Source: an uncultured delta proteobacterium (lineage in GTDB: Bacteria > Desulfobacterota > Binatia > UBA9968). Taken from it: DNA of 64,000 nucleotides. The stretch is taken from NCBI GenBank assembly GCA_963771465.1, contig CAVYTU010000017.1:384001-448000 (forward strand), written 5' to 3'. The notes beneath the pieces were generated by a model, which had not been told where the DNA came from, made no database searches, and saw nothing but the letters and a program-made list of their open reading frames with translations. Shown here one piece after another: positions 4,953 to 37,488 of this stretch. The position numbers were made by a program, and so were the translations under genes. The stretch's first letter is position 1. The number at the start of each line of letters is the position of its first letter.

Positions 4953-7283
4953 CTACGCGTTTGTCCGCAATGAACGCAGTACTTTTTCCGCCGTGATCGG
5001 CAACTCGCGGATGCGCACGCCGATGGCGTCGTTGACGGCGTTGGCGATGGCCGCGGCTACGGGCACGAGGGGCGGTTCGCCGAGCGCTTTGGCGCCGTAG
5101 GGGCCGATGGGGTCGGGCTGCTCGATCAAGACCGCTTCGATGGGCGGGATGTCGATCAGGTTGGGAATCTTGAACGAGTCGAGATTGAGCGTGAGCGGCG
5201 CGCCGGTGTCTGGGTCCATGGGGATTTCTTCCATCAGCGCGTAGCCGATGCCTTGGACGACTCCGCCGATGATCTGGCCGCGCGCGGCTTCGGGATGGAT
5301 GATGCGGCCGGAGTCGTGCACGGCGACATAGCGCACGACGCGCACGCTGCCGCTGTCGGGGTCGACTTCGACCTCGGCGAAATGAGCGGCGAAAGAATTG
5401 ATGATATGGGTTTTGCTGCCGGCGCGCAGTATGGCTTCGCCGACGATGGTTTGATCGGGTTGGCGCCGAATGACGTGACTCACGGGAATTTTTAGCTCCG
5501 GTGTGTCGGTGACGGAAATAAATTCATCGCGCCAGACCAACTTGGCCGGCTCGACTTCGAGCAGTTTGGCGGCTGATTCAAACAAGCGCCGTTTGGCGTC
5601 GTCAGCGGCTTGCTGCGCGGCGAGTCCCGACGTGAATGTCGTCGTGCTGCCGGAGGTGCTGTGCGCGAACGGCGTCGTTTCGGTGTCAGCAAAGGTTGCA
5701 TGAACCTTTTCGAACTCTACGCCGAGTGTTTCGGCGGCGATCTGTCTCAATATCGTCCATGCACCCTGGCCGATCTCGGTGATGCTCATGAGTAATTCGG
5801 CGCTGCCGTCGGGTTTCAATTTGACGAGGGCGGAAGATTGGGATTGCCCCGTTTTGTAAATGCACGCGGCCAAACCCATGCCGCGATATTTACCATTGAC
5901 CCTGCGTTTGCGCGGACCGTTGGAGCGCGGTTTCCAGCCGATTCGCTTTGCGCCTTCACGCAGACATTCCGTTAAGAGATTGCTGGAGAAGGGGACGCCG
6001 CCTTCGATCGGTTGTGCCGGAATCAGACTGTCGACTGGCGTGACGCGCGCGCCGGGCTGACCTTCGGAACGCACACAATGGCGCAGGCGATATTCCAACG
6101 GGTCGATGCCGAGTTTTTCAGCGACTTCATCGGCAAATGACTCCAGCGCAAAATGCGCCTGGGGCGCGCCGAGGCCGCGGTAGGAACCGGCGACGGGACT
6201 GTTGGTGAATGCGACTTTGCCGACGAAACGTGCGTTGGGACAGCGGTAAAGATAAGTCAGGCCGTGGCCCAAGCGCGAAGCGACGCCGTAGCCCGGCGCG
6301 TACGGTCCAGTGTTGAGCGCGCTCGTGGTGTCGATGGCGGTGACCGTGCCGTCGCGTTTGAGTCCCATTTTGATTCGTGTCGTAGTCGCATGGCGCCATT
6401 TGCCGTAACCCAGCTCTTCTTCGCGCGTGTAACCCATGCGCACGGGCTTGCCCGCTTTACGCGCGAGCAGCGCGGTGATCAATCCCAAACGAGTCTCGTC
6501 TTTGCTGCCGAAACCGCCGCCAAGATACGCCGCGATGACGCGCACGCGTTCGTGCGGTAGCGAGAATATCCTGGCGAGTTTATCGCGGTCGCCGTATACA
6601 TTGCGGCTGGCTTTCCAGACTGTGAGTCCATCGCCGTCCCAAGACGCGACGCTATAACGCGGTTCGAGCGCCAGCGGGCTGGTGGATTGGGTGCGATAGG
6701 TTTGCTCGAGGATCAGCTCCGCTTGCTTCATACCGAGATCGATATCGCCGCGGGAAAACTCGATGGGTTCTTTGCCGGCGAGATTGCCACCGCCACGGAC
6801 CGACGGCGCATCGGGTTCGAGCGCGCGCTCTTCGTTCAATACGAACGGCAAGGAGCGATACTCAACTTGAATCAAGCCGAGCGCTTCTTCGGCGATCTCT
6901 TCCGTGTCGGCCGCTACCGCCGCCACTTCGTCGCCGACATGGCGTAAAGTTTTATTGAGAAGATAAACCGGAGCCACCGGTGCGTCAGGTTGGGAATCGT
7001 CACCGTCTTCGAACGGGATCGCCGGCGCGTCGCGATACGTGATCACCGCGTGGACGCCGGGCAAAGTCTCGGCTTTCGACGTATCGATGCTGATTATCTC
7101 CGCATGGGCATGGGGACTGCGCAGGGTTTTGCCATGCAGTAGATTCTTTGCCGACAGGCGGTCGGCGGAAAATTCCGCCGCGCCGCTAATCTTTGCGTGT
7201 GCGTCGACACGGGTTACTGAGTGGCCAACGATGCGCAGGGTGGACGGTGTTTGATCGGTGTTTTTGGGCATCTTGATGTGCAT
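4953..7283 (-). CDS. Xanthine dehydrogenase family molybdopterin-binding large subunit
   Basis: LRSPHAHA, GGGFGSK, YRGLGAPQ, GQIIGGVVQGIGYAL, KALGEPP; start may be ATG 7271. Confidence 0.92.
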   Translation of the reverse strand: MHIKMPKNTDQTPSTLRIVGHSVTRVDAHAKISGAAEFSADRLSAKNLLHGKTLRSPHAHAEIISIDTSKAETLPGVHAVITYRDAPAIPFEDGDDSQPDAPVAPVYLLNKTLRHVGDEVAAVAADTEEIAEEALGLIQVEYRSLPFVLNEERALEPDAPSVRGGGNLAGKEPIEFSRGDIDLGMKQAELILEQTYRTQSTSPLALEPRYSVASWDGDGLTVWKASRNVYGDRDKLARIFSLPHERVRVIAAYLGGGFGSKDETRLGLITALLARKAGKPVRMGYTREEELGYGKWRHATTTRIKMGLKRDGTVTAIDTTSALNTGPYAPGYGVASRLGHGLTYLYRCPNARFVGKVAFTNSPVAGSYRGLGAPQAHFALESFADEVAEKLGIDPLEYRLRHCVRSEGQPGARVTPVDSLIPAQPIEGGVPFSSNLLTECLREGAKRIGWKPRSNGPRKRRVNGKYRGMGLAACIYKTGQSQSSALVKLKPDGSAELLMSITEIGQGAWTILRQIAAETLGVEFEKVHATFADTETTPFAHSTSGSTTTFTSGLAAQQAADDAKRRLFESAAKLLEVEPAKLVWRDEFISVTDTPELKIPVSHVIRRQPDQTIVGEAILRAGSKTHIINSFAAHFAEVEVDPDSGSVRVVRYVAVHDSGRIIHPEAARGQIIGGVVQGIGYALMEEIPMDPDTGAPLTLNLDSFKIPNLIDIPPIEAVLIEQPDPIGPYGAKALGEPPLVPVAAAIANAVNDAIGVRIRELPITAEKVLRSLRTNA

Positions 7284-7429: not shown

Positions 7430-8077
7430 ATGTCGGTGCAACGCACGCAAATCATCATCGTTCGCCACGGTCAGACCGAGTGGAATATTCGAGGCATTCG
7501 ACAGGGTTATCTCGATAGCCGCTTGACCGAGCGAGGCGTCGCCCAGGCGAAGGCGCTCGGGCAGCGTTTGGCGCGGGAAAAATTCACGGCGCTCTATAGC
7601 AGCGATCTTGGCCGGGCGGTGCAAACCGCGCAAGAGATCGCCAACGTCACGGGGCATGCGATTATTACCGACGAGCGATTGCGTGAGCGCCATCTCGGCA
7701 TCTTTCAGGGGCTTAACGGCGAAGAGATTATTTCCAAGTATCCCGAGGAGCGCAAACAGATGCGCACCCAAGGGCCCAGTTATGTGATCCCCGGCGGCGA
7801 AAGCATGGTCCAGCAGGTGGCGCGCAACATCGGATGCTTGAATGAATTGGCCGCGAAACATCAGGGCGAGCAGATCGTCGTCGTGACCCACGGCGGCGTC
7901 GTCAGTGGATTCTTTCGCCACACACTGGAGATTTCTCTCGAAGCGCCGCGCCGCTTCGAGTTCGTCAACGCGGGGATAAATGTATTCGTCCATGAGGACG
8001 GTAACTGGATGCTTCTGACCTGGGGCGATGTGAGCCATCTCGCGCCGGGAGCGGCGAGTGAAGGGGATGATCCCTAG
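7430..8077 (+). CDS. Histidine phosphatase family protein
   Basis: IIVRHGQTEWN, YSSDLGRA, LRERHLG, VVTHGG; start moved to ATG 7430. Confidence 0.9.
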   Translation: MSVQRTQIIIVRHGQTEWNIRGIRQGYLDSRLTERGVAQAKALGQRLAREKFTALYSSDLGRAVQTAQEIANVTGHAIITDERLRERHLGIFQGLNGEEIISKYPEERKQMRTQGPSYVIPGGESMVQQVARNIGCLNELAAKHQGEQIVVVTHGGVVSGFFRHTLEISLEAPRRFEFVNAGINVFVHEDGNWMLLTWGDVSHLAPGAASEGDDP

Positions 8078-9760: not shown

Positions 9761-10180
9761 ATGAAAAGTTTTCGCAAGGAACTTTGGTTCAATACCCCGA
9801 CGCGGGTGGCGTTCGTCAATATCACGCGGCAGGTTGAAGAGTGCATCCGCGAAAGCGGTGTGAAAGAAGGTCTCGTGCTGGCCAATGCCATGCATATCAC
9901 CGCGTCGGTATTCATCAACGACGATGAGACCGGCTTGCACCATGATTATTCCGCTTGGTTGGAAAAACTCGCGCCCCATGAGCCGATCAAGCAATACCGT
10001 CACAACGACACCGGCGAGGACAACGCCGACGCGCATATCAAGCGCCAAGTCATGGGCCGTGAAGTGGTCGTCGCGATCACCGACGGCAAGCTCGACTTCG
10101 GTCCGTGGGAGCAAATTTTCTACGGCGAATTCGACGGGCGCCGGAAAAAGCGTGTGCTGGTTAAAATTATCGGCGAATAG
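9761..10180 (+). CDS. yjbQ: YjbQ (UPF0047, secondary thiamine-phosphate synthase) family protein
   Basis: [36 protein letters not shown]. Confidence 0.9.
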
Positions 10181-10215
10181 CGGAGTCTTCGCTCGCGCGG
10201 CAATTGGGTTTAGGC

Positions 10216-11094
10216 TTATTTAGCCAGAGCGACTTCGACCGTGTTACCGATGTCGAACGCCATCAAGTCGTCTCCCACCACGAGTGGCCCAGCATAGTGC
10301 GCGCGCGTCGCCGGAATCAGATCTTCGGCTTTCGCGCCGCCGAACAGCAGGAGATGATTGTACACCGCCAATTTCGGCTGTACGCGGGAAAAGACGATGC
10401 CGGCTTGGTCCGGCGTCGTGTGGTTGCTGCTGATTCTTTTGAGTTGTTCCTGGTTTTCCGCTGCCGCGCCCGCCGCGGCGGTGACTTCGTGGATTAACAA
10501 GTCCGTGCCCTTCGCGTGGCGAATGAGGTTCTCGTTGAACGTCGTGTCGCCGGAAAGAACGACCGAATGGCCGCGGTAATTGATCCGGTAGCCGAATGCC
10601 GGCAAGTCCTCGCCGCCATGATCGACTTCGAAGGCGAAGATTCTCACGCCGTTGCGATCGAACACCATGCCTTCGTTGATGCCGTCCGCTTCCAGCTTTA
10701 CGCCTTCGGGCGGATAGTTGTGGCTGCGCACGCGGATGTCGACGTGAAATGCTTTCGGCAAGTGCTCCATCATCTGTTTGGTTCCGTCAGGTCCCCAAAC
10801 CCGCAGCGGAGTTTTTCTCATGCCCCAGGGTCGGCCGATCCAACCGGTGAGCCAGAGATCGACAAAGCCGACGACGTGGTCCGAGTGATGGTGCGTGAGA
10901 AAAACGCCGGTGATGTCGGCGAAGGGAATGCTCAATTGATGCAGCCGCTGCATGGCGCCGCGCCCGGCATCGAAGATTAGTTTCTCTTTGCCCGCTTCGA
11001 CCAGCGTGCTCGGACCGAAGCGGTCGAGCACCGGCGGCGGCGCGCCGCTGCCTAACAGTGTGACGCGAAATAAGTCCGTGGGTTGTTCGGCCAT
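10216..11094 (-). CDS. MBL-fold metallo-hydrolase (RNase Z/arylsulfatase-like)
   Basis: TLLGSG, FLTHHHSDH, VVLSGDT, LLIHEV, NHTTP. Confidence 0.9.
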   Translation of the reverse strand: MAEQPTDLFRVTLLGSGAPPPVLDRFGPSTLVEAGKEKLIFDAGRGAMQRLHQLSIPFADITGVFLTHHHSDHVVGFVDLWLTGWIGRPWGMRKTPLRVWGPDGTKQMMEHLPKAFHVDIRVRSHNYPPEGVKLEADGINEGMVFDRNGVRIFAFEVDHGGEDLPAFGYRINYRGHSVVLSGDTTFNENLIRHAKGTDLLIHEVTAAAGAAAENQEQLKRISSNHTTPDQAGIVFSRVQPKLAVYNHLLLFGGAKAEDLIPATRAHYAGPLVVGDDLMAFDIGNTVEVALAK

Positions 11095-11220
11095 GTTGGA
11101 CTCCTGATTCCCGTTTGTTCAATCAATCGCGAGTACGCGCGTAGCCTACCACCATGAGGATCAAATTGAGAAGCGTCATGCGCAATTGATTGACGACCTG
11201 TTGACCTATATGTTTGGCAA

Positions 11221-12453
11221 GTGAAGACAACGTCAAAGGATCGATTGCTACCCGCGGCGCGTGATAAGCGCGATAGATCAGTTGGAGCGCACCGTGAACC
11301 CTACGAGTCGCCGTGCCCGCACTTTCCCAACTGCGTCGGCTGTCCTTTCATAAAGCTGCCCTATCCCGAGCAATTGTTGCGCAAGCGCGAAATCGTTCGG
11401 CGCGCCTTCACCGAATATTCGTCACTGGCTGCCGTCGAGATTCCCCCGGTGGCGCCGTCGCCCGAGCGACTGGGCTATCGCGCGCGGGTGAAGCTGGTCG
11501 TCCGGCGCAATCGCGGCGAGGTCGCGGTGGGATTATTTGTCCCGCAAACCCATCGCGTCATCGACATCTCCTCTTGCCCGGTGCATCCGCGGCCGGTCAA
11601 TCAAGTCGTCTATTACCTGAAGAAGAAACTGGTCGAGCTTGGCATCGCGCCCTACGATGAGCGTAACGACAGCGGCGATGTGCGCTATTTGGATTTCCGT
11701 TACAGTTTCGCGCGCAAGGAATTGAGCGTCACGCTGGTGACGCGCCACGACTCGTTGCCACAAGGCGAAGCGCTGGCGGATGCGTTGCATCACCGTTTTC
11801 CGTTCATCACCGGCGTGATCCAAAACGTCAACGAGGAGCGCGGCAACGTTATCTGGGGCAAGAGCTTTCGGATGCTCGGTGGGCGCGACACGTTGATGGA
11901 ACGGATCGGCGATCTGAAGCTGGTGTTTCCCGCCGGCGCCTTTTCTCAAGCTAATCCTTTCACCGCGCGCAAACTCTACGAACATGTGCGCGCGCTAGCA
12001 GATCTGAAAGGCGTCGAAACCGTCTTCGATCTTTATTGCGGCGTCGGGCCGATTTCGTTTTATCTCGCGACTTCGGCGCGCCAAGTCTGGGGGGTGGACG
12101 ATAGTGAGCTTTCAATCACGACGGCCAAGCAAAATGGCCGGCGCAATGGGCGCGGCAACTGCCGCTTCGTCGCCGGCGAGGTGGCGACGATAGTGAGTCA
12201 ATGGAAGCAATCGATACCGGATGTCGATTTGATCGTGCTCAATCCGCCGCGCAAAGGCATTCAGAGCGCGGCGATGACGGAGTTATTGGAGATCGGCGCG
12301 CCGAGGTTGATTTACGTGTCGTGCGAGCCGAAAAGTCTGGCGCGCGACTTAAACAAGTTCAATGAACACGGCTATCGTATTACCCATGTCCAGCCCTTCG
12401 ATATGTTTCCGCAGACTGAGGAAGTGGAAACTGTGGTGAGGTTGGAGAGGTGA
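11221..12453 (+). CDS. rlmD: 23S rRNA (uracil-C5)-methyltransferase RlmD-like, no TRAM domain
   Basis: CPHFPNCVGC Fe-S motif, FSQAN, DLYCGVG, NPPRKG, YVSC, DMFPQT. Confidence 0.85.
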   Translation: MKTTSKDRLLPAARDKRDRSVGAHREPYESPCPHFPNCVGCPFIKLPYPEQLLRKREIVRRAFTEYSSLAAVEIPPVAPSPERLGYRARVKLVVRRNRGEVAVGLFVPQTHRVIDISSCPVHPRPVNQVVYYLKKKLVELGIAPYDERNDSGDVRYLDFRYSFARKELSVTLVTRHDSLPQGEALADALHHRFPFITGVIQNVNEERGNVIWGKSFRMLGGRDTLMERIGDLKLVFPAGAFSQANPFTARKLYEHVRALADLKGVETVFDLYCGVGPISFYLATSARQVWGVDDSELSITTAKQNGRRNGRGNCRFVAGEVATIVSQWKQSIPDVDLIVLNPPRKGIQSAAMTELLEIGAPRLIYVSCEPKSLARDLNKFNEHGYRITHVQPFDMFPQTEEVETVVRLER

Positions 12454-25813: not shown

Positions 25814-25842
25814 TTGACTTCATCGAGAGTAACGCGTAGCTT
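25814..25842 (+). promoter_or_regulatory. Putative sigma70 promoter of the RRM gene
   Basis: TTGACT-17 nt-TAGCTT, about 200 nt upstream of ATG 26044. Confidence 0.45.
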
Positions 25843-26043
25843 GACACTATCTTCTTCAGTCAATGGCCTTCTGAGAGGACAGAAAAATTTGAAGGCCTCT
25901 TTCCGTCTCTATCCTCTGATAGCAATTTCTAAATGACAATCCGACCAGAGCGGGGGTTTAGTTTTTACGAGCCCATGTTCTGCCCCTTTAGCAGTTAGAT
26001 TCTCAGGATCACAGACCATAACAATGTCTCATAGGAGGACAAC

Positions 26044-26361
26044 ATGGGTAGTAAATTATATGTCGGTGGTTTGCCTTATTCAGTCACAGAAGGAAGTTTG
26101 CGGGAGCTTTTCTCGGCACATGGCACGGTTGAATCGGCCAACGTGATCTCGGATAAGTTTACCGGACAATCGCGCGGCTTCGGCTTTGTCGAAATGTCGT
26201 CGAGCGGCGAGGCGCAAAGCGCCATCCAGTCGCTCAACGGCACGCAATTCGAAGGGCGCAGCTTGACCGTCAATGAAGCCAAGCCGATGGCCAAGCGCGA
26301 TAACTTCGGTGGCGGTGGTGGCCGTAACGGCGACCGCGACGGCGGACGAAACCGCTATTAG
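26044..26361 (+). CDS. RRM RNA-binding protein with Gly/Arg-rich tail
   Basis: RNP2 LYVGGL, RNP1 RGFGFVEM; AGGAGG RBS. Confidence 0.95.
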   Translation: MGSKLYVGGLPYSVTEGSLRELFSAHGTVESANVISDKFTGQSRGFGFVEMSSSGEAQSAIQSLNGTQFEGRSLTVNEAKPMAKRDNFGGGGGRNGDRDGGRNRY

Positions 26362-26383
26362 TTTTTTCGTTAGATAAGTAGTG

Positions 26384-26745: not shown

Positions 26746-27715
26746 GTTCGATTCAATTAAGCGCGGTCTGCTAGGAATTCCGGCAGCGTCGCAGAATGTC
26801 CTTAGCACGGATCTCTCATGTGCAGAGTTGGCGAATAGACCGTCGCTTGCCGAACATCGAGGCGATGAAGCCGGAGTCGTCGAGTTCCGTGCTTGAGCGA
26901 TCGAATTTCAGGATGGAGTTGATCCTAATTTCGCTACTAGCGCAGTATCAAAAGAAAGAATCGAGACTCGACGTTTGTGATTCGTGGATTACAAAAAGCT
27001 TGGATCAGTGTCACGACAGTATTGATTGTTATGCTTGATTCCGATCCCTAACCCCAATCCCGACCCTGGATTTCCAACTCGTTCTTAAAACGCTCATTGC
27101 TGAATTCTCACGTCTTAAAAGCCGCTGCGCCGAGCGGCGTTGCCGACAAAGCTTATCGGCAATTGAATCGGGAAGCCGATTCGTCGGTCCATTTCATTTC
27201 ATGTGGGCGGGATCGTCAAAAAAAGGCATCTAGATACCGGCGTCCGCCGGTATGACGGCCGAGTGCGAACACTCGTTTAGTCGCTATCACGATCTCTGCA
27301 ATCGGCATTCTTACCACCGAGTCACTGAGACGATGAAGTTTGAAGCCTCGATGGGGTCGATCGTTTCGCGCTGTGTTGGCCCAACGGCGAAAAATGCGCT
27401 ACTCGCGTTTTTGTCTTGCTCGGCTTGGTGAAATCGTGTTAAGCGGCATGTGCCCTAAGAGTATAAAATTGGGGCGCGGCTCTGAAGTGCGAAACTCCCG
27501 ATGTTTCAACTGATCAATGGATGTATAGAATGCGCTGAGTGCAGGCACGAGATTCGCCACGGCGACGAATTCAATTGCCAATCCTGCGGAGCGAGCATCT
27601 GCGACAGTTGTCTCTTTTATCATGAAGACGAATGCCTTTTGGGAAATTGGGGCGACAAGCATTTTCATTGACTAGGAAAAGGGTTTTAGCGTTTTCGGGC
27701 GCTGGCGCACGCTTT

Positions 27716-27866
27716 CTAAATTCGAAATCCGAATATCGAAATCCGAAACAATTTCAAATTTCCAAATATTCAAATCCAAAACTCAAGTCCGAATCGAGGT
27801 TGTTTGGAACATTTGGGCTTTTGTCATTCGATATTGTTTCGAGCTTTGGATTTCGAGCTTCGAACT
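27716..27866. repeat. Long imperfect inverted repeat with 7-bp-periodic arms
   Basis: ttcgaaa tccgaat atcgaaa tccgaaa caat... versus ...attg tttcgag ctttgga tttcgag cttcgaa. Confidence 0.75.
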
Positions 27867-27945
27867 TACGCGTTTATTAGCGTCTCTGCGGTGGAACCTT
27901 CCGACGTCGGACCGTCACGACCCACGCGCACGTACACGAGCCTCA

Positions 27946-28716
27946 CTATTTCATTGCCTCCTCATTCAGATCGAACTCCGCGATAACCGGCGCATGATCG
28001 CTGGTGCCGACCTCGCGATAGGCAGCGCACCGGGCGGCTTTCACCGCCAAGGGTTCGCTCGCCAGGATGTAATCGATGCGCCAGCCGATATTGCGCTCGC
28101 GCAACTTGCGCCAGGGCGCCCACCAGGTGAAAAGGTTATCGTTGTCCGGGTCGAGCGCGCGGCCGACATCGACGAGCCCGCGCGCCAGCAGGCGCTCGAA
28201 GATTTCTCTTTCCTCCGGCCGCTGTCCGACCACGCTGGGATTGCGCTCTTTGGGATGGACGTCGCGTTCGCTGCGCGCGATATTGATGTCGCCGCACAAA
28301 ACGATGCGCATGCCGCCGGCGTGAGCTTCGCCGATGAAAGCCTCCATCTGCCGCAAGAATTCCATCTTCGCAGGAAAGTCTTTGCCGCCGTTCGGCACAT
28401 ACACGGAGACGAAGAGCAGATCGCCCAGCTGCGCCGTCACGATACGGGTTTCGACGTCGAAAGCGGGATGGCTAAACACCGGCGCGTCGGCAAATGCGTC
28501 GCGCCGGATGTGGAGCCCCACCCCCGAGTAAGCGCGCTCACCGTGCCAGTAACAGCGATATCCCTGCAGCTCGCAGAGTGCCGCCGGCACCTGAGCCACG
28601 GTCGATTTGAGCTCCTGCAGGCAGACCACGTCCGGCCGCTCGCGCTCGATCCATTCAAGAACCTGAGCCTCGCGCGCACGGATCCCGTTAACGTTCCAGG
28701 TGGCGATTTTCAGCAT
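27946..28716 (-). CDS. xth: Exodeoxyribonuclease III
   Basis: IATWNVNGIR, CLQELK, YVPNG, GDINIA, GWRIDY, SDHAP. Confidence 0.95.
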   Translation of the reverse strand: MLKIATWNVNGIRAREAQVLEWIERERPDVVCLQELKSTVAQVPAALCELQGYRCYWHGERAYSGVGLHIRRDAFADAPVFSHPAFDVETRIVTAQLGDLLFVSVYVPNGGKDFPAKMEFLRQMEAFIGEAHAGGMRIVLCGDINIARSERDVHPKERNPSVVGQRPEEREIFERLLARGLVDVGRALDPDNDNLFTWWAPWRKLRERNIGWRIDYILASEPLAVKAARCAAYREVGTSDHAPVIAEFDLNEEAMK

Positions 28717-29079: not shown

Positions 29080-29149
29080 AGCCCTGCAGAGTATGAACGG
29101 TCCGCAGCTGTTGCTTAATTTACCTGTCCCTGAAATCGGGGCTAGCCCA
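29080..29149 (+). mobile_element. IS3-family right-end remnant
   Basis: agc cct gca gag tat gaa ... taa = SPAEYERSAAVA*, typical of an IS3 integrase C-terminus, then ctgtccctgaaatcggggctagccCA, an IS3-like IRR ending in CA at 29149. Confidence 0.65.
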
Positions 29150-29827
29150 CTCCGACCCGACTCCGTCGTAGCTGACCCGTAGAGAACCACCACTCTTTTT
29201 TCAACCAATCACTTTTAAAGTCCGTCAGCAAAGAGGAAAGTTTCGATGCGATCTCGCGCCGGATGTCGTTGGCTCGCTGCCGTCTCAGCTCTGCGGTGCT
29301 TGGCTGTTGGATAGGTTTTTCATTGCTGCCGGAGGATTCATGATCTGCCAATAGGTCCAGGACGAAGGCAGTATTGATTCCAGTCCATCCGTAATCTTCG
29401 TTGGTACCCGTCGTGTAACCACGTTCATAAAACTGCAGCGATTGCTCCAAATAACGCTCTTGCCCGGAAAGTTCCCACTTGCGTTTGTAGATGGCACCGG
29501 CCAATCCCAAGGTCTCGCGATCCGTTGTTCGATCGAGGTCAACTTCCCTGAGTATTTGCAGCGCTGTATCTAATTTCTCCTCGGAGAGTAAATCGGGATC
29601 CTTGTAGGTACACAGAGCACGTTGTTGGGCAATTTTGACACGGAGGTTCGTGTCGCCTCGAACCGCAGAATCGGTACCATACTTGTCAAGCAGCTTCCGT
29701 CCAAGGCCAAACGCACGCTCTCTCTTTAGCGTTCCCACAAGGTCAATGACCTCGGACGGGTCACTTGTCGCCCCCGAAGAATGTCTTTACCCATTTTTAC
29801 AGCGTTACTCGCTTCGGTTTGCGCCAT
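29142..29827 (-). pseudogene. TPR (TRAF-binding/DUF4071/TPR-S-like) gene, frameshifted and C-terminally truncated
   Basis: ALCTYKDPDL, ETLGLAGAIYKRKWE, WTGINTAF. The N-terminus MAQTEASNAVKMGKDILRG (ATG 29827) joins ATSDPSEVIDLV if one G is added in the G5 run at 29771-29775. The frame loses protein-like character after EWWF and runs into the IS end. Confidence 0.7.
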
Positions 29828-30003
29828 ATAGTCTTTTGATCAGCCGGTCATATCATTCCATCCGGAATGGGTAGAGTTTGCCACGGCAAATCCATTTAAC
29901 GGGTGCCCACATTTCTTGTTCTGTGCATCTGCGTTTCTGTTTAAAGCGACACAAGATATTCATGGCCGAAATTACGACTGCGATGAGAAAGCCCCATTCG
30001 GCC

Positions 30004-31065
30004 TCAATTTATTTTGACCCCTCTCTCGATCAAAGCTCTAACCATCACGGCAGCCCCGCATTGTTGTGAGATCACCTGCGGATCGAAGTGGCCATCGGCC
30101 ACATACTTTCCTTTTTCGTAATGATTCGAAAAACTCCACAAATAGGGAGTGGATAAGCGCATGTTTCGATAACCGAACCCATTAAACTTCTCAAACAAGT
30201 AAAGTATGTGCGGTATAGACCAGTCAGTTACGTTTGCCAGGCCATCCAGTTTTAACGCGTCAACGGCACTTGCTTCCCATGGGAATGGTGGTGTGCCGTT
30301 CCGCGGGTGACCAGCAGGGACATGACTTGTCTGCCTCGTTAGCGGATCGCCGTTGTGCAAATGACACGCGAAGTTAAAGCCGCATTCCATGGCATGAATG
30401 ATGCCGACCACTGCCCAAGGAACATTATTCACCGTGGATCCGACTGACTGATAACGGCTCTGGTTTTTAAGTAATTGATTAACATGCCAGTCGACCTTGC
30501 TTTGTTGATCCGCTTTGATGACCAGTGTTCCGAAAAACCGTTCGTATTCCACACGCAGAACAGCAAAGTCTTTACTGGGATCTATCGTCAAACCGTTCGC
30601 TGGCATTCGATGTGTTGATGGGGAACTGGGTGGTACTGGTGAGGCGGGCGTTGGTTGGGATGGTCTCGAGGAAGGAGCGGTCGTCGTACTCGAAGTGGAT
30701 CCGGGCGATGCTGGCGACGGTGCACCTGGTGGTTCAATCGCCCGAGGTGAAGGTTCTGAAAGCTCTCCGTTCCGGAGCAGCTGATTGGTGCGAGTGATTA
30801 CTCCTTCGATCGCTTTGACGAAGTCATCAAAAGGACCCAGGCGTGCACTGTTTACGACTCGCTCGAGAGAAATAGTGGCGCTTTGAATGGCGTTCGCTGC
30901 ATCTTGTAAGTCATCTTGATTAAGCCGCGCTCGAATATTGTTGAGTTGGTTGATGGCTTCAGTAATCGTAGCTTGTTCTGAAGCGTCCGTGGTCTGGCTG
31001 AATCGATCGGTCAAAACGTTCAAAGCTTCAGTGAGTTTTCCCCGCGCTTCATTCTTGATTCCCAT
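30004..31065 (-). CDS. Lysozyme-family protein with N-terminal helical domain and P/S/T linker
   Basis: VPWAVVGIIHAME (putative catalytic Glu), HLHNGDPL, WEASAVDAL, EKFNGFGY, PYLWSFSNHY, GKYVADG; no signal peptide. Confidence 0.8.
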   Translation of the reverse strand: MGIKNEARGKLTEALNVLTDRFSQTTDASEQATITEAINQLNNIRARLNQDDLQDAANAIQSATISLERVVNSARLGPFDDFVKAIEGVITRTNQLLRNGELSEPSPRAIEPPGAPSPASPGSTSSTTTAPSSRPSQPTPASPVPPSSPSTHRMPANGLTIDPSKDFAVLRVEYERFFGTLVIKADQQSKVDWHVNQLLKNQSRYQSVGSTVNNVPWAVVGIIHAMECGFNFACHLHNGDPLTRQTSHVPAGHPRNGTPPFPWEASAVDALKLDGLANVTDWSIPHILYLFEKFNGFGYRNMRLSTPYLWSFSNHYEKGKYVADGHFDPQVISQQCGAAVMVRALIERGVKIN

Positions 31066-31128
31066 TTCTTGACCCTCCTGCTATTGCTTCCCAATATCGT
31101 TGGAGTTGCGCTGCAGAATAATCTGACA

Positions 31129-32085
31129 TTAAGCACCCGACCCACGCAGGGTCGAGTAGACCCTTCTCCATGCATCGGCATGCACTGCCAAACGAGCGGA
31201 TTTTTCGGCTACAAAGGCAACGGATGCCGTGTTTTTGGGTTGCCGTACCGCTGTTACTAGCTCGTCAAACGTATTTTGTAACTCCCCGAGCAGGACAACG
31301 TAGTTAGACACAACGATGCGGTAAGTTGATATACGATCCAAATGGTTTTTAGCAATTACCGGATTCTTCAAAGCGTCGGTACTGGTTACTCCTTTTACAG
31401 ATTGAAAGATTAGGGTGTTAAAAACTGCTGGAGCCCCATCTCGCAAGCTCATTACTAACTTTGTCACATGGGGAGCACCCGCTAGGACGAGGCGATTCAT
31501 TTCCTCGATATTCTTACGCTGAGCAGCGTCTCTAATGATCGGATCGAGTGCAGCGAGTGCTCCCGAAAATCCTGCGCCGCCTCCCGGTCCTGCCCCCATA
31601 GCAATCAGTGCTGCTATGTTTCCGCCAAGATTTTGAATCTGCGCTGAGGTCTCGTCGAGATTGCGACCTTCGGCGAGAGTTAATAGTACTTCGGAGTAAC
31701 GGCCAATCAATCGAATACCATCACGAATCCGTCGCGTTGTGGGTGGATCGCCGATTTCCGAATAATAAGATGCATCGTTAGTACAGTAGCCATCGATGAA
31801 GCCGACTTTGGCCCACAGTATACCGCTACATTCCCCAAGGAATGCACTGTCTTTGGCGTTTGCTTCGGCGACATTCTGACCCTGTCGCCTTTCAGCGATG
31901 GCTAGGTCATCAAATAACGGCTGACTGGCCTCGTTGAAGGTGATAAAGGCGCTGTTAAATAGCCTGACTTCCTGAACTGGCGCTACGGCGCAGCTGGTCA
32001 GTATTGTTAAAGTGAGCGGCAGCACAAGTGCGAGACCGCTTTTATTGCTCCCTTGAGCTGACTTTCCCCGGCGTTGGACTCTCAT
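31129..32085 (-). CDS. All-alpha lipoprotein of unknown function
   Basis: Basic N-region, hydrophobic stretch, lipobox LTSC; long amphipathic helices; GGGAG upstream. Confidence 0.75.
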   Translation of the reverse strand: MRVQRRGKSAQGSNKSGLALVLPLTLTILTSCAVAPVQEVRLFNSAFITFNEASQPLFDDLAIAERRQGQNVAEANAKDSAFLGECSGILWAKVGFIDGYCTNDASYYSEIGDPPTTRRIRDGIRLIGRYSEVLLTLAEGRNLDETSAQIQNLGGNIAALIAMGAGPGGGAGFSGALAALDPIIRDAAQRKNIEEMNRLVLAGAPHVTKLVMSLRDGAPAVFNTLIFQSVKGVTSTDALKNPVIAKNHLDRISTYRIVVSNYVVLLGELQNTFDELVTAVRQPKNTASVAFVAEKSARLAVHADAWRRVYSTLRGSGA

Positions 32086-32394
32086 AACGATCTCCCATCG
32101 TGCGTCAGTGCGAATTGATATTTTATCCCAGCAATACTAATACCAGACACCATTGGTGTCCGAATCGCTATTCAACGCTTGAAATTACAGTCTTAAATTA
32201 GCGGTAGGTTGCTCAATGTAGTCGGGATATCGTTTAACCCGGCAACCAGCGTTTACGCCAAGTGTAAACAAAGTTATCGCGCGACTTCTCTTCATCAGTC
32301 TCGATCGCCATCCTTCGGACATTTCACGAACCCCTACCATCATCTCATTTGCTTCATAGCGTTTGCCCAAGTGGCTGTCCAATAAATAATATTT

Positions 32395-32408
32395 ATGACG
32401 ACCGTCAT
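32395..32408. promoter_or_regulatory. Possible operator palindrome in divergent intergenic region
   Basis: ATGACG-AC-CGTCAT next to an AT-rich tract, between the lipoprotein gene and LysR. Confidence 0.3.
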
Positions 32409-32545
32409 TCGAAATTTTTAGGATGGTTGACGGCTGAAGCTTCTCTCAACTAGATTCCGACGCTGGATTCGGGTGTGGCGTGGTCTTTGCTTGTTACAGT
32501 GCAGATTATCTGAGAATAGGAACGTTCATAGTTTGGAGGGAGCCG

Positions 32546-33517
32546 ATGACCTTACAGCAGTTCAGAATTTTTTCGGCGATTGCGAAGTTTGGCAATCTAA
32601 CTAAGGCTGCGCTTGTACTGCGCACGAGCCAACCGGCTATCTCGCATCATATGAAACTTCTCAAGGATGGTTATGGCGAGATACTCTATATTCGCACGCC
32701 TTTTGGGGTCGTGCTCACGCCGGCGGGCGAAGGATTGCTCGCTAAGATCGAGCCGATTCTAGAATTGGTCGGGAAGTTAAAGTCCAGCGCCGCACTGACT
32801 ATGTTGCGCACGGCCGACCGCGATGTGTTGCGCGTCGGTGGTGTTGAGAGCGCTTCGACTCATTTACTGCCCGCTGCCTTGGCGCAATTCCGCGCGCGCC
32901 ATCCCATTGTCGCCCTTGAGTTTCGCACCCGCACTTCGGATCTTCTCGAACGCATGGTCCTCAATACTTCGATGGATATAGCCGTAACTGCGCGCCAGTC
33001 GATCTCCCTGGATTTGCAATGCGAACCCTTGCGTCGTGAGAGAGTCGCGCTGTTTGTGCCGACTCGTCATAGGCTGGCGAATAGCAAAACTTTGCAGCTA
33101 CACGACGTGCTCGCCGAGCCGCTGATTCTGCGCGGCGGCCGAGGTGGCGGTGGTGTAACCGATCGCGCGTTGAATCAATTGCGAGACCGCGGTGTAGAAA
33201 TTCGCGTCGGCATGTACTGTGACGGACCGGCGGCGATCAAAGCGGCGGTGGCTCAAGGCATGGGCGTCGGCATGGTATTTGAGGAATCGCTCAAGGCCGA
33301 GGCTGCGGCTGGCAAGTTCAAAATTCTTAGAGTGCGTGGTCTGGAGCTAGAGGGGCATAGCTACATCGTTTATTCGAAGAGTCGACCGCTGTTGCCTTTG
33401 GCGCAGGAGTTTCTTGAAATATTGCGCGAGGAACGTGATGGCGTCGCTTTTAACGGCCGTTCAAAACGTTCAAATCGTTCAATCAGCGCTCGGTTCAAGC
33501 CGTATGAGATCCCCTGA
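32546..33517 (+). CDS. LysR family transcriptional regulator
   Basis: MTLQQFRIF...NLTKAA...SQPAISHHMK HTH; AIKAAVAQGMGVG; start ATG 32546 after GGAGGGAG. Confidence 0.92.
   Translation: MTLQQFRIFSAIAKFGNLTKAALVLRTSQPAISHHMKLLKDGYGEILYIRTPFGVVLTPAGEGLLAKIEPILELVGKLKSSAALTMLRTADRDVLRVGGVESASTHLLPAALAQFRARHPIVALEFRTRTSDLLERMVLNTSMDIAVTARQSISLDLQCEPLRRERVALFVPTRHRLANSKTLQLHDVLAEPLILRGGRGGGGVTDRALNQLRDRGVEIRVGMYCDGPAAIKAAVAQGMGVGMVFEESLKAEAAAGKFKILRVRGLELEGHSYIVYSKSRPLLPLAQEFLEILREERDGVAFNGRSKRSNRSISARFKPYEIP
33459..33501 (+). repeat. 9-bp-period micro-array inside the LysR 3' end
   Basis: gttcaaaac gttcaaatc gttcaatca gcgctcg gttcaagcc. Confidence 0.75.
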
Positions 33518-33734
33518 CTTAGTCACGGAGAGCAGTAATCCGAATGGTAAATTGGTCCCAGCCGCCACGCTGGATGGTTCCAAGATCTTTAGCGTTGGTA
33601 GCAAGCAAAAAAGCACCGATTCTCTTCGCGGCTAACGCCAGGCGAGTCGGATAAAAACATTCGACGTGGCGCCTTTAAACAAATCAGCACCGAGGGTTGA
33701 TACCGCGCAGCTTGTTGGGGGGTAGTTCGATCCT

Positions 33735-35507
33735 TTATCTTCGCCGCCGCTGCGGTTTCACCCATGGGATCGCTTTGCCGAGTATTGTGCCCGGCCCGAC
33801 GAGGCTGGGCGTTTGTTTGTAACCCAAGGCTTTCAACCTATCCGTTGTCAGTTTCGTCAGCGCGCGGAAATTTGAGTTCTTGCCGCGCGTTCGGCCTTCG
33901 CGAAGAACTTTCGCCAGACTAAATGTAAACGCGCCATAGGAGTTAGCGCCGTCGCGGTACTCGTAGGAAAGCTCCTGCTCCTGGCATGCTTCGAAAATGA
34001 TCGGTAGATAGGCGCCCTTGTGGCGCAATGCTTTGCGCTGATTATCGTAGCGACGGTTGGGAAGACCTCGCAGTACGACGCCGCGACCGAGACGGTATGT
34101 GACGCCGTTGCGGCCCAAGTAGGCTTTGCCGATTGCAGACTGCTCCAACGATTGGTTGGGGGATTGAAGATCTCGGTCCTCCCACATGCCGAGCTCGATG
34201 TTCCAGCGCAAAGCGCGATGGCGAATATCGTCGGGCGGATTGATGCCGCGGGCGCGTGGACCGCCATCGCGCGTCATGCCGCCGGAGTGGCAACAATCGA
34301 AGATGGCGGCAAAACGGGCGTCATAGGGCAACTGGCTGTAGAAGGCGACAAACTGATTATCGATGATCGCGTGTTCTGGGCTCCAGTCGAAATCGTACGG
34401 CACCAGGCACTCGTCCATGCGGTCGACTTCTTCTTTGGCCCCATAGGCCGGAATCTGCGCGCCGTGCCCTGAAAAGAAAAACACGCGCTCGTCGCCGGCG
34501 CGCACGTCGTCGAGCAGCCAGTGCAGGCGCTCCAAGATATTCGCGGCTGTGGCACGATCATTCAGCAATACGCGAATATCCTCCGGCGGGAAGTTGCATT
34601 CCTGGAGCACCGAGCTCATCAGAAAAGTATCGTTGACGCAGCCCTCTAAACGAATTGCCGGGTTGGGGTAATCGTTGATGCCGACAAGCAGAGCACGGCG
34701 GTTGGCCGGCGCGGCGCTTGCTCGGGCCAAACGCATATCGCGACGAGTCAATGAGCGCGCCGGCCGCGCCGCGGCAATATCGAACCAGGCGCGCGCCTGA
34801 GTATTGGCGTGATTGAAATAATAAATCGGATCGTGATTGAGGATGTCGTTGGGTTTGTCGAACCGGGTATCGATCTGGGCAAACCTGACGTCGTTGAGTC
34901 TCAGTTTGGCCGTGAATACGCCGTCGTCGTCGTTGTACAAGTGATACCACATGCGCGCGTCGAGGGGCTCGATGCGGCCGGCGAAGCAATCGCGGACGAA
35001 GGGATTGGCTATTTGCGAGCCAAAAGTGAGCAGCGTCTTGTTGCCAAGCGCGCCCGGGTTTTGCCGAAAGGTGTCGTAGGAAAGCAGCGAACCCAGACTA
35101 TGCGCCGCGATCACGTGATAGTGCTTTTTCCCCATCATACCGAGCAGGCGGGTGCGCAGGGCGGCGCGCAGATTATCCTCTGAAGCCCATTGGGCAATCA
35201 TGCCGGCAGTCCAGCGAATCTGTTCGGGAAGATCGAAAATACCGCGGCTGGCGGGGATGAAATCGCCGATGCCGTGCGTCACGCCGCTGGCGAGAAGTTT
35301 AGCGAGGGCTTTGCCGTACGTCGCCGGGTTCCGTGGCGCGTGATCGAACAGATCATCGTATTTTAGAAAGTCACAGATGACTTCAGCGTGAGCATTCCAC
35401 CGTTTGAGGTTTTTTGTAATCGCGTCAGTCCAAGACGGCATAAGGGCCGGATCGACGTCACCGTGGCCGACGCCATGGACGCACAGGACACTAATTTGAC
35501 TTGGCAT
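33735..35507 (-). CDS. Alpha/beta-hydrolase - metacaspase (peptidase C14) fusion protein
   Basis: N-terminal VHGVG, AHSLGS, LTFGS, C-proximal Asp/His; C-terminal ALLVGINDY, GCVND, FSGHG (His), DCCHSG (Cys), GAFT; GGAGG RBS. Confidence 0.88.
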   Translation of the reverse strand: MPSQISVLCVHGVGHGDVDPALMPSWTDAITKNLKRWNAHAEVICDFLKYDDLFDHAPRNPATYGKALAKLLASGVTHGIGDFIPASRGIFDLPEQIRWTAGMIAQWASEDNLRAALRTRLLGMMGKKHYHVIAAHSLGSLLSYDTFRQNPGALGNKTLLTFGSQIANPFVRDCFAGRIEPLDARMWYHLYNDDDGVFTAKLRLNDVRFAQIDTRFDKPNDILNHDPIYYFNHANTQARAWFDIAAARPARSLTRRDMRLARASAAPANRRALLVGINDYPNPAIRLEGCVNDTFLMSSVLQECNFPPEDIRVLLNDRATAANILERLHWLLDDVRAGDERVFFFSGHGAQIPAYGAKEEVDRMDECLVPYDFDWSPEHAIIDNQFVAFYSQLPYDARFAAIFDCCHSGGMTRDGGPRARGINPPDDIRHRALRWNIELGMWEDRDLQSPNQSLEQSAIGKAYLGRNGVTYRLGRGVVLRGLPNRRYDNQRKALRHKGAYLPIIFEACQEQELSYEYRDGANSYGAFTFSLAKVLREGRTRGKNSNFRALTKLTTDRLKALGYKQTPSLVGPGTILGKAIPWVKPQRRRR

Positions 35508-35584
35508 ACTTTTTCACCTCCAACGGACGCAGCCCATCGACATCGTCCGATATAAATCACGCTCGGAGTTAAATGGTCGGTGTC

Positions 35585-36397
35585 TTAGATAGCGAATGGT
35601 TTCTGCGCTTCGTAGGCGGAATTTGCCGCGCCGACGTAATAATAATTGGGCGTCTGCGTCGACGGCAGTAGCGAAACGATCTTGTCACGCAGCTTGCGAT
35701 AGTTACCGCTGAACTTGCCGCCATTCCAGACTTTCTTCAGCGTGCCCGTAAAGGCGCCGTTGTTGTCGCCGTCCATGGAAGTCTGATTATCCATGCAACC
35801 GGAGATTAACAGCACGCTGGCAGCGACTTTTATCTTTTCCGTGCCGCGGTTGTTTTTTTGGATGCTCTTATAAAGAGCGCTGTTGGCTTTCTCCACTGCT
35901 ACGCCGACGGTGCGGGGCATGGCGCGCGGACGCGGGCCGACTCCTAAGAACGGCGGGATGTCCCTCACCACCGTACCGCTGTGGCAACTGTCGGATAGAA
36001 CCAAAATGCGCACGCCGGCTTTGAATTTGGCCCACAGGTTGTAAAGTTCGTCATCGACGAGCTGGCGGTCGAATAGAACCCAAGTCTCGTCCATGCGGTC
36101 GTTATCCTTCTCGTCGCTGTTGGTATCGCGCACCTGTCCGCCGTGACCGGAATAAGTAAGAAAAAGCATATCGCCTTTGACGAGTTTCTTGCCGGCGTCC
36201 TGAATCGCTGCCATGACCGCCTCGGCGGTTGCTTGTCCATCGAGGAGCAACGTGTTGCCGATGAAGCCTTTTTTCTTGGCCAGAGCGCGCATGTCCTTGG
36301 CGTCGGCGATGCACGCGTTAAGCTCGCCGTCCCAGCCTTGATAATGTTTGGGATCGACGTGATTCAAACCGATATGCAAAGAAATCCCTTTTGCCAT
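35585..36397 (-). CDS. Stand-alone metacaspase (peptidase C14)
   Basis: LHIGLN, YSGHGG (His), DETW, SDSCHSG (Cys), LISGCMDNQTSMD, GAFT; GAGGAGG RBS. Confidence 0.92.
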   Translation of the reverse strand: MAKGISLHIGLNHVDPKHYQGWDGELNACIADAKDMRALAKKKGFIGNTLLLDGQATAEAVMAAIQDAGKKLVKGDMLFLTYSGHGGQVRDTNSDEKDNDRMDETWVLFDRQLVDDELYNLWAKFKAGVRILVLSDSCHSGTVVRDIPPFLGVGPRPRAMPRTVGVAVEKANSALYKSIQKNNRGTEKIKVAASVLLISGCMDNQTSMDGDNNGAFTGTLKKVWNGGKFSGNYRKLRDKIVSLLPSTQTPNYYYVGAANSAYEAQKPFAI

Positions 36398-36816: not shown

Positions 36817-37488
36817 TTGGTTTGCGAACAGGAAATTGAATTGAGAAGCTTCCGCAGAGTCAAATATCCGTGTCCGGTCTGCGCGGCGGCGCGCGAGTCT
36901 TGTTTGTGCGCGGCGCTGCCGAGGATTGAACTCGCCACCAAGATTTGTCTGGTGATTCATCATCGAGAGCTCACGCGCAGCAGCAATACCGGACTGCTTG
37001 CAGCTCGTGCGCTAGTCAATAGCGAGGTGCGGGTGCGCGGCGCGGACCGCGAGACTCTCGATCTCAAGAATATTGTGACGCCGCAGTATCGAACGTTTAT
37101 GCTCTATCCTTCTCGGGACGCTTTGGATTTGGATTATGCCTTGACGGTGAACGCCGCGCGTCCGATTCAACTGATTGTGCCAGACGGCACTTGGCGGCAA
37201 GCGCGGAAGCTTCACTTCCGCCATCCTGAGCTGAATGATGTCACACGCGTGAAGGTTAATGTCCCCGGCGACTCGGCTTATCAGCTGCGCGCGCAAAGCC
37301 AACCGGGACGGATGGCGACGCTGCAAGCGATCGCTCATGCGCTAGGAGTGATCGAAGGGGCATCGGTGCGAGATCAATTGATGAAGCTCTATCATGCCAA
37401 GATCGATCGCACACTCATCGGCCGCGGCATTTTGCCGCGGATAAAAGAGTTACCGCTAGGCGAGCCAGATGTCGCCGCCAAAGCGTGA
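36817..37488 (+). CDS. DTW-domain tRNA-uridine aminocarboxypropyltransferase (TapT-like)
   Basis: CPVC...CLC, HHRE...SNTG, LYP, VPDGTWRQARK; start uncertain. Confidence 0.85.
   Translation: MVCEQEIELRSFRRVKYPCPVCAAARESCLCAALPRIELATKICLVIHHRELTRSSNTGLLAARALVNSEVRVRGADRETLDLKNIVTPQYRTFMLYPSRDALDLDYALTVNAARPIQLIVPDGTWRQARKLHFRHPELNDVTRVKVNVPGDSAYQLRAQSQPGRMATLQAIAHALGVIEGASVRDQLMKLYHAKIDRTLIGRGILPRIKELPLGEPDVAAKA

Follow-up and report, generated by a model that had tools for sequence, protein, structure and literature searches.

A composite metacaspase island in an uncultured Binatia bacterium hints at a partly decayed, protease-linked lysis module

Do two metacaspase genes, a lipoprotein gene, a gene for a lysozyme-like protein and the remnant of a TPR-S gene, standing close together on a bacterial chromosome, form one protease-gated lysis system, or were they assembled stepwise? 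The question is raised by an island in the genome of an uncultured delta proteobacterium of the Binatia (assembly GCA_963771465.1, here G000, 99.4% complete). The window, which is the whole stretch of DNA that was analysed, comprises 64,000 nucleotides of contig CAVYTU010000017.1 (positions 384,001 to 448,000, forward strand), and positions given without a contig or locus name refer to it. An earlier note on this DNA proposed that caspase-like proteases encoded here release membrane- and wall-attacking effectors. The gene set that it described is present, with five minus-strand open reading frames (ORFs) and one plus-strand ORF at 29142-36397. Pfam recognizes Peptidase_C14 in the metacaspases casp270 and casp590, LysR domains in the plus-strand ORF and TPR-S (PF20308) in a 198-amino-acid ORF; the lipoprotein and the lysozyme-like protein are called p318 and p353.

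Three layers make up the island, which lies between xth and a resident metacaspase and is not one five-gene system. The first layer is casp270, an old, syntenic chromosomal metacaspase of the genus. The second layer consists of casp590 and the LysR gene, which stand beside casp270 in few genomes. The third is the AT-richer p318-p353 cassette, the most recent addition, whose following gene has decayed. In other bacteria, relatives of p353 and p318 are wired to caspase, TIR and sensor genes. This hints at a protease-linked lysis module that has not been described before and that is partly decayed here. We put the probability at roughly 0.55 that the island is such a three-layer composite and that p353 is a protease-licensed lytic effector whose native partner has decayed at this locus.

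Three layers between xth and a resident metacaspase

The distribution of the genes was tallied over 31 genomes of the genus, with the unpublished G005 entered as a negative row. casp270 is present in 15 of these genomes at 72-89% identity, and 13 of the 15 lack p353 and p318. casp590 occurs in four genomes, always next to casp270, and p353 together with p318 in two (G000 and G014), always next to casp590. The distribution is nested, with p353/p318 inside that of casp590 and casp590 inside that of casp270. Directly upstream of casp270, 12 of 13 genus loci carry an NMT1-type binding-protein gene, and at least three have Amidohydro_2 genes on the downstream side. At the other end, xth is 94% identical to its counterpart in G018 and 91% to that in G039, and there too it is located 6-13 kb from casp270. 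The interval between them is variable, spanning 13 kb in G018 (PolX, VanY, Lipase_3, IS200-like) and 6 kb in G039 (PolX, BrkB, ORF6N). In G018 (L010, G018:C46), the Lipase_3 gene stands beside the VanY-type peptidoglycan peptidase gene at 10045-11804, forming another pair of lipase and wall hydrolase near casp270.

Base composition and divergence distinguish the layers as well. The GC content is 0.50-0.52 in the TPR-S fragment, p353 and p318, compared with 0.58 in casp590, 0.55 in casp270 and 0.557 in the genome, so the left half of the island is indeed AT-richer, as first noticed by eye. Relative to G014, the synonymous divergence (dS) is 0.55-0.67 for p318 and p353, 1.0 for casp270 and 1.8 for casp590. 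The earlier suggestion that the two halves could have separate origins agrees with these data, since GC content, distribution and dS all differ between them. The ratio of nonsynonymous to synonymous divergence (dN/dS) against G014 is 0.10-0.15 for p318 (0.15), p353 (0.13), casp270 and casp590, so all four intact genes are maintained under purifying selection. G000 and G014 share these four genes but not the outer flanks.

The LysR gene had been taken to interrupt an operon. This does not hold: in G015 and G006, both of which lack p353, the gene convergent with casp590 is a full-length homologue of the regulator (49-53% identity), which is thus a pre-existing neighbour of casp590. Its start probably lies near 32546, and NCBIfam alignments begin at residue 23. 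In G015 (L011, G015:C4), a papain-family Peptidase_C1 gene at 6303-7235 is divergent from the LysR gene next to casp590-casp270, adding a third protease type at that locus.

Both metacaspases retain the His-Cys dyad, as the earlier note had read from the sequence, with the motifs YSGHGG and SDSCHSG in casp270 and FSGHGA and FDCCHSGG in casp590; SGHG and D(S/C)CHSG are present in each. In casp590, the metacaspase domain (PF00656, residues 270-569, 95.0 bits at a cut-off of 21.4) follows an N-terminal domain of 265 residues and aligns over residues 269-569 with Arabidopsis metacaspase-9 (E 4e-22). H348 and C405/C406 are invariant in 25 aligned relatives. The casp590 family contains 483 relatives, with a fixed architecture of about 590 residues, a column identity that averages 73% over the 25 aligned sequences, and source names that include Acidobacteria, Methylomirabilota, Nitrospirota and Usitatibacter. 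The N-domain of casp590 carries AHSLG (S137), an N-terminal HGxGHGD, D195, D217, H225 and H233, all invariant in the 25 sequences. The first two motifs are in line with the lipase-like domain proposed before, though no Pfam family matches this domain up to E 10. Its profile weakly matches the LCAT/PGAP1-like nucleophile elbow of six giant CHAT proteins (E 6e-4 to 0.3, nine proteins searched).

The pairing of the two metacaspases is found elsewhere without the cassette. In a sample of 400 genomes of the phylum, one other casp590 was found (G106, 49% identity), with a second caspase directly downstream. Among casp590 relatives whose loci extend at least 1 kb on both sides, 8 of 38 have a second caspase beside them, located upstream in the clade of the window and downstream in a clade of 54-58% identity. 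Profiles for p353, p318, TPR-S and TIR detect none of these near casp590 relatives in 80 metagenome loci. From these two counts, pairing of the casp270-casp590 type recurs as a minority state that is independent of p353. The five families do not form a recurrent set, and on this point the single cascade inferred in the earlier note is unsupported: casp590 relatives occur without p353/p318 (0 of 80), and casp270 stands mostly alone in a syntenic metabolic context. The relationships of the caspases were assessed with a quick tree. In this tree, the stand-alone caspases beside casp590 relatives form one clade with casp270 (SH-aLRT 100), apart from the caspase domain of casp590, and casp270 also joins the caspases adjacent to p353 in other bacteria (SH-aLRT 86-89). 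It is 31-41% identical to the latter, and one of them (from L014) used as a query finds casp270 as its best match in this genome.

The gene following p353 is a dead fragment. It matches PF20308 with 70.1 bits (cut-off 27.6), the sole such match in the genome, and aligns just to residues 189-325 of a 433-residue relative (L050), so about 190 N-terminal residues are missing. In addition, an in-frame stop at 29787-29789 lies 16 codons upstream of its GTG start. The partial alignment and the stop together bear out the TPR remnant of the earlier note. Its further description as a TPR effector does not stand, because the gene is a dead fragment and the TPR-S family is better read as a sensor than as an effector. 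In G014, a 78-residue caspase remnant, 42% identical to the C-terminus of casp590, abuts the p353 stop, and no TPR-S fragment is present there. Since the remnants differ in this way, the p318-p353 cassette probably came with a downstream partner of its own, which has probably decayed differently in the two genomes.

Other broken genes were observed. In G014 (L009, G014:C14), the LysR gene is split into two fragments (7579-7987 and 10290-10661, residues 248-287 and 39-170) around p353-p318. A second caspase locus of G000 (C15:759482-765915; L093:6474-12916) encodes a caspase protein of 640 residues and a DUF900 alpha/beta-hydrolase of 417 residues. On the opposite strand lies a heavily broken gene whose pieces match the N-terminal (1-190) and C-terminal parts of 650-residue TPR-S-family proteins; by its content, this locus repeats the theme of caspase, hydrolase and decayed TPR-S within the genome. 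The sole CHAT (PF12770) match in the genome is an 88-residue open-frame fragment (C14:1148259-1148471), which may be another decayed conflict gene.

The p318-p353 cassette and its relatives

In the predicted structure of p353, residues 1-100 form a four-helix N-domain and residues 101-157 a disordered linker rich in Pro, Ser and Thr, after which the C-domain follows. Modelled alone, the C-domain reaches a predicted local distance difference test (pLDDT) score of 88.6, and its first 40 structural neighbours (VIA-align) are all cell-wall or polysaccharide enzymes, phage endolysins among them. MltF is the best match (Z 6.4, root-mean-square deviation 4.0, 127 residues aligned), followed by MltE (Z 6.1), the type VI secretion system (T6SS) proteins Tge2 (Z 6.0) and Tse3 (Z 5.2), and Slt70 (Z 5.2). 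The helical-domain lysozyme of the earlier note agrees with the model in its architecture, and the nearest folds of the C-domain are wall or polysaccharide enzymes, though with a best Z of just 6.4. In fold searches with the whole model, the N-domain returned generic helical bundles alone. No model in Pfam, NCBIfam, PADLOC or PHROGs matches p353, even at E 10, and PDB searches by sequence and by profile brought up no meaningful match, the C-domain profile returning nothing at all.

Six residues of p353 (E227, H235, H237, N238, G239 and D240) are invariant. The candidate catalytic residue E227 is kept in all 26 full-length and all 32 C-domain sequences, in surroundings that we take to resemble the SLT 'ES' and 'YNxG' motifs. 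The family contains more than 5000 homologues, labelled 'lysozyme family protein' by JGI, and the Atlas clusters closest to its C-domain are 65-69% viral. Towards its end, the linker has an Arg or Lys in 8 of 11 sequences of the beta/gamma clade. Metacaspases are Arg/Lys-specific, and such a residue would suit cleavage by them, which we note as a lead only.

The N-domain appears as a reusable module. Searched against 1.84 billion representative proteins, its profile gave 112 matches. The p353 C-domain is present in 27 of these proteins, two of which add PG_binding_1. Elsewhere, the N-domain is fused to six other types of wall hydrolase, namely Phage_lysozyme, N-acetylmuramidase PF11860 (three proteins), VgrG3-like_C, VanY, Glucosaminidase with Amidase_3, and CHAP/DUF2272, and in one protein it is fused to TIR (TIR_2). 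It is strongly conserved, not diversifying. Profile searches find a single copy at each N-domain locus and a single copy in the whole genome. Homotypic coupling of the effector-associated domain (EAD) type was considered and rejected, as no second copy exists. With a single copy and no match to the Pfam EAD models, the N-domain does not qualify as one of the paired EAD-type adaptors of Kaur et al. 2020. The VanY protein near casp270 in G018 was likewise considered as an N-domain carrier and rejected, since the profile has no match in L010.

The neighbourhoods of p353 were compared in one genome per species for the best 80 of 577 relatives, 26 of which contain the N-domain and 54 the C-domain alone. 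A caspase gene lies beside p353 in 10 of the 26 N-domain loci, compared with 1 of the 54 C-domain-alone loci (L034, truncated by a contig start). In nine of the ten, the caspase is directly downstream of p353, at a distance of 26-57 bp where the ORFs are clean; in the remaining one (L030), the other strand carries it at a distance of about 2 kb. TIR is found nearby in 8 of 26 versus 4 of 54 loci, and any of caspase, TIR, TPR-S and patatin in 16 of 26 versus 9 of 54 (Fisher p 9e-5, uncorrected for relatedness). According to Pfam, these neighbours include caspases of 263-433 residues, TPR-S proteins of 650-714 residues upstream of p353, and TIR, pYEATS-TIR and TIR-PASTA proteins. Patatin or Tle1-like phospholipases are found near p353 in four loci. 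Moreover, in six loci a giant protein of about 1800-2000 residues stands beside p353 and the caspase and combines two or three DUF7379 domains, an LCAT/PGAP1-like lipase, CHAT and TPR-S. The hosts of the p353 loci include Rhodocyclaceae, Thiobacillus, Steroidobacteraceae, Desulfobacterales, relatives of Acetobacteraceae and a Citrobacter. p353 relatives in other phyla share operons with genes for caspase, CHAT, trypsin, TIR, lipase and TPR-S, and these partners make a conflict or lysis role of p353, possibly protease-linked, plausible.

Two observations belong to these neighbourhoods. The giant proteins are encoded at L014:10201-16188, L017:2402-7768, L021:9862-15360, L024:5936-11935, L026:1265-6958 and L035:9309-15335, in Beta- and Gammaproteobacteria. 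An uncultured gammaproteobacterium (L019:6964-14287) has p318, p353, TIR-PASTA, TPR-S-trypsin and Endonuclease_NS (NucA) in a row.

p318 possesses a signal peptide with a lipobox (...LTLTILTS-C), and residues 16-38 form its sole hydrophobic segment. All 16 aligned homologues keep the lipobox Cys32, which agrees with the earlier assignment of p318 as a lipoprotein. It has no match in Pfam, NCBIfam, PADLOC or PHROGs (up to E 10) and none in PDB searches, and an Atlas search returned unnamed Pseudomonadota clusters alone. A p318 homologue lies directly upstream of p353 in 14 of the 26 N-domain loci, and a further one is found at L050, where the N-domain was missed by the profile. In a metagenome-assembled genome of Rhodocyclaceae (L016:6879-7980), the p318 homologue is spread over two reading frames, probably through a frameshift or assembly error, and adjoins an intact p353 and a TIR-VHL protein. 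Since it is absent from 12 of the 26 loci, p318 is not obligatory; it is an accessory, which may act as a guard or docking partner, and not a core part.

Structure prediction of a p318-p353 complex gave a median ipSAE of 0.44 (runs 0.44, 0.16 and 0.77), with a best control of 0.00, a contact agreement of at least 63% and partner pLDDT of at least 80. In the benchmark, 58 of 80 solved complexes pass the ipSAE mark, as do 2 of 110 mismatched pairs; at an ipSAE of 0.60 or under, it is passed by just 7 of the 80 solved complexes and by both passing mismatches. These counts apply here roughly, as the complex run used its own alignments. The prediction lends weak support to the idea that p318 may bind p353.

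The locus and its flanks

The coordinates of the features are collected in Table 1. The genes that the earlier note placed at the two ends of the island are borne out by family matches, TIGR00633 for xth and PF03942 for the DTW-domain gene.

Table 1 Features of the island and its flanks in the window
Feature	Position	Strand	Description
xth (exodeoxyribonuclease III)	27946..28716	-	TIGR00633, 227.6 bits; conserved left anchor of the variable interval
TPR-S gene fragment (pseudogene remnant)	29142..29786	-	listed ORF 29142-29738; open frame to 29786
p353	30004..31065	-	353 aa; four-helix N-domain (~30766-31065), linker, lysozyme-like C-domain (30007-30588)
p318	31129..32085	-	318-aa helical lipoprotein, 63 bp upstream of p353
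LysR-family regulator	32480..33517	+	HTH_1 and LysR_substrate; divergent from p318, convergent with casp590
dispersed repeat, 45 bp	33456..33503		forms the 3' end of the LysR ORF; 6 other genome copies
casp590	33735..35507	-	590 aa; alpha/beta-hydrolase-like N-domain (34713-35507) and metacaspase domain
casp270	35585..36397	-	stand-alone metacaspase, 270 aa, 77 bp upstream of casp590; PF00656 83.7 bits (cut-off 21.4)
DTW-domain gene	36817..37488	+	PF03942, 132.8 bits; right flank, outside the module

Insertion-sequence scars had also been suspected in the island. No transposase family is found in any scanned ORF and no flanking repeats are present; there are just two short dispersed repeats. 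One is the 45-bp repeat at the 3' end of the LysR ORF, which has many short matches across the genus genomes. The other, of about 150 bp, is located at 27715-27868, left of xth and outside the island, and has about 8 further matches in the genome. The intergenic stretches beside p353 and p318 have no second copy in the genome. Further left, an RRM-domain (PF00076) gene at 26044-26361 (region 25831-26365) has three paralogous copies elsewhere in the genome (71-78% DNA identity) and sits in a gene-poor stretch between the Amidohydro_2 genes and xth.

When the island was compared with the component models of PADLOC-DB v2.0.0, the generic 'caspase' model PDLC02987 alone was returned (E 4.7e-18 and 1.8e-9), along with a sub-threshold match to PbeC (E 0.0087). 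That the earlier note recognized no named system agrees with this comparison of component models. Pfam scans detect neither phage or holin genes nor an NTPase in the window interval, and no gasdermin family is found in any scanned window ORF or in any scanned neighbour of the p353 relatives.

Candidate mechanism, rival readings and relation to described systems

In the reading that we favour, p353 would be the wall-attacking effector of a conflict module of the abortive-infection type. The N-domain and linker may hold p353 inactive or cytoplasmic, and a partner protease would license it, in the way that gasdermins are licensed by caspase-like proteases. This partner would be a caspase, CHAT or trypsin, in many cases coupled to a TPR-S sensor. 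Lipase-type partners would give p353 access across the inner membrane, and p318 may serve as its envelope partner, either as an inhibitor or immunity protein or as a docking protein. At this locus, the native sensor and protease partner would have been lost, and the cassette may work alone, be taken over by casp270/casp590, or decay.

Several observations weigh against this reading. In the window, 4.5 kb and the plus-strand LysR gene separate p353 from casp270, and the loci of casp590 relatives lack p353, p318, TPR-S and TIR altogether, as described above. By local profiles, 10 of the 26 N-domain loci have none of caspase, TIR, TPR-S and patatin; neighbours were called from naive ORFs in flanks of at most 8 kb, and related genomes are not independent samples. 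p318 is missing from 12 of these 26 loci and hence dispensable. The fold match of the p353 C-domain is weak, as all Z values stay below 8 and Foldseek finds at best a g-type lysozyme at E 0.99; no lysozyme or SLT hidden Markov model of Pfam, NCBIfam or PHROGs matches p353 up to E 10, and the invariant HxHNGD loop is poorly modelled. By hydropathy, p353 is without a signal peptide or transmembrane segment, and no holin-like gene is nearby, leaving no route across the inner membrane. In addition, no basic residue of the linker is kept across the whole family.

The favoured reading can be extended to the whole family, an extension that we hold tentatively and regard as somewhat doubtful. p353 relatives would then be an undescribed class of protease-licensed wall 'executioners', in which the N-domain and linker are a universal safety catch on at least seven peptidoglycan hydrolase domains and TIR. 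Caspase, CHAT or trypsin with TPR-S sensors would release the catch, a lipase would breach the membrane, and p318 would guard or dock. If true, this would be a wall-directed counterpart of gasdermin-type suicide, spread across Pseudomonadota and Thermodesulfobacteriota and grafted beside resident metacaspases in the genus.

It is unlikely that p353 and p318 are instead a secreted antibacterial toxin-immunity pair, with the N-domain for trafficking, the C-domain as toxin, the lipoprotein as immunity protein, and caspase and TIR as unrelated island cargo. In its favour are a constant N-domain with swapped wall-hydrolase or TIR domains, the T6SS VgrG3-like C-domain included, the structural matches to the T6SS muramidase effectors Tge2 and Tse3, the lipoprotein gene directly upstream in 14 of 26 loci with weak predicted binding, and a Tle1-like phospholipase that adjoins p353 in L045. 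However, the sole T6SS marker searched, TssC (PF05943), was not found in this 99.4%-complete genome, which weakens the T6SS-effector reading. Moreover, p318 is absent in 12 of 26 loci, mostly caspase-bearing ones, the N-domain is strongly conserved and not diversifying, and the p353-caspase spacing of 26-57 bp looks operonic.

We consider it improbable that casp270, casp590, p318, p353 and TPR-S are one working protease-gated cascade, in which the resident caspases release lipase-like and lysozyme-like effectors. The nested, always-adjacent distribution in the genus is compatible with such a cascade, as are the joint presence of the four intact genes in G000 and G014 despite different outer flanks, the purifying selection on all four, and the resemblance of casp270 to caspases that adjoin p353 elsewhere. 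The theme of protease, lipase and wall hydrolase also recurs in the DUF7379-LCAT-CHAT giants and, according to Asplund-Samuelsson et al. 2012 (PMC3501461), in single metacaspase polypeptides. These points are opposed by the restriction of the set to 2 of 31 genus genomes, the absence of p353/p318 from the 80 loci of casp590 relatives, the synteny of casp270 without the other genes in most genomes, the different histories indicated by dS and GC content, and the fragmentary state of TPR-S. The five genes are not one operon either, because the LysR gene lies on the opposite strand.

A leftover phage-type lysis or type 10 secretion system-like cassette (endolysin and spanin-like lipoprotein) that neighbours the caspases by chance is very improbable: the nearest Atlas clusters of the C-domain are largely viral and the xth-casp270 interval carries unrelated cargo in other genomes (PolX, IS200-like, BrkB, ORF6N), but p353, p318 and TPR-S have no PHROGs match, the window interval holds no phage or holin genes, the caspase enrichment belongs to the N-domain form and not to the viral-type C-domain-only form, and p318-p353 is under purifying selection.

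A protease-licensed p353 would have its closest parallel in bacterial operons of a gasdermin and a caspase-like protease, reportedly the subject of Johnson et al. 2022 (Science). In both gasdermin operons and the loci of p353 relatives, an effector gene is directly followed by a caspase-like protease gene, and CHAT or trypsin proteases fused to TPR-type sensor repeats are often present as well. The effector differs, as p353 would be a lysozyme-like wall hydrolase with a four-helix N-domain and not a pore-former. The arrangement in the window differs as well, the protease being adjacent to p353 in 10 of 26 relatives' loci but not here.

Pairs of a protease and a nuclease proenzyme that it activates are reported from antiviral systems (PMC12799240). 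Kaur et al. 2020 (PMC7159879) describe 'System 3' trypsin-NucA systems, in which lysozyme effectors are attached via EAD1 adaptors that are present twice. L019 resembles these systems, as it joins p318-p353 to a TPR-S-trypsin and NucA pair. Unlike the EAD1 adaptors of Kaur et al. 2020, the p353 N-domain is single-copy and matches no Pfam EAD model, and no NTPase core is seen in the window. TPR-S (PF20308) occurs both in the window fragment and in many p353 neighbours, where it is fused to trypsin, CHAT or unknown N-domains; unlike these full-length proteins with an N-terminal domain and TPR-S, the window copy is a truncated remnant.

The cassette also resembles T6SS muramidase pairs (Tse3-Tsi3 and Tge2-Tgi2; PDB 4luq and 4kt3), in that a signal-less, putatively lysozyme-like enzyme stands beside a periplasmic lipoprotein, with structural matches of Z 5.2-6.0. 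Unlike these pairs, it occurs in a genome without TssC, p318 is often absent, p353 is tightly caspase-linked, and its N-domain is common to other hydrolases. Metacaspases fused to amidase and lipase domains are described in PMC3501461, and here too a metacaspase with an intact His-Cys dyad is fused or linked to putative lipase and peptidoglycan-hydrolase functions. In contrast to those fusions, casp590 has an unnamed alpha/beta-hydrolase instead of a GDSL lipase or Amidase_2, and the wall hydrolase is encoded apart from it, by a gene that has an N-domain of its own and a lipoprotein partner. No account that connects a lysozyme-type effector to caspase, TIR and TPR-S in such an arrangement was found in the literature searched, although one may be given in Burroughs & Aravind 2020 (J Bacteriol), the probable source of the TPR-S family, or in Pei & Grishin 2005, the COG5526 paper. 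Kaur 2021 (PMC8195603) makes no mention of lysozyme, peptidoglycan or TPR-S.

For this window, the outcome is the more sober one that the 'island' is a stepwise patchwork with a dead sensor partner, and the finding is best filed among protease-linked effector modules, here composite and partly decayed. Studies of bacterial immunity currently pay attention to effectors that are switched on by proteases, gasdermins and nuclease proenzymes among them, and an unannotated family of more than 5000 proteins may belong with these. If true, the favoured reading would make the cell wall a further target of regulated self-destruction, and would give a testable role to the N- and C-domains of p353, to p318, to the hydrolase domain of casp590 and to the DUF7379-LCAT-CHAT-TPR-S giants.

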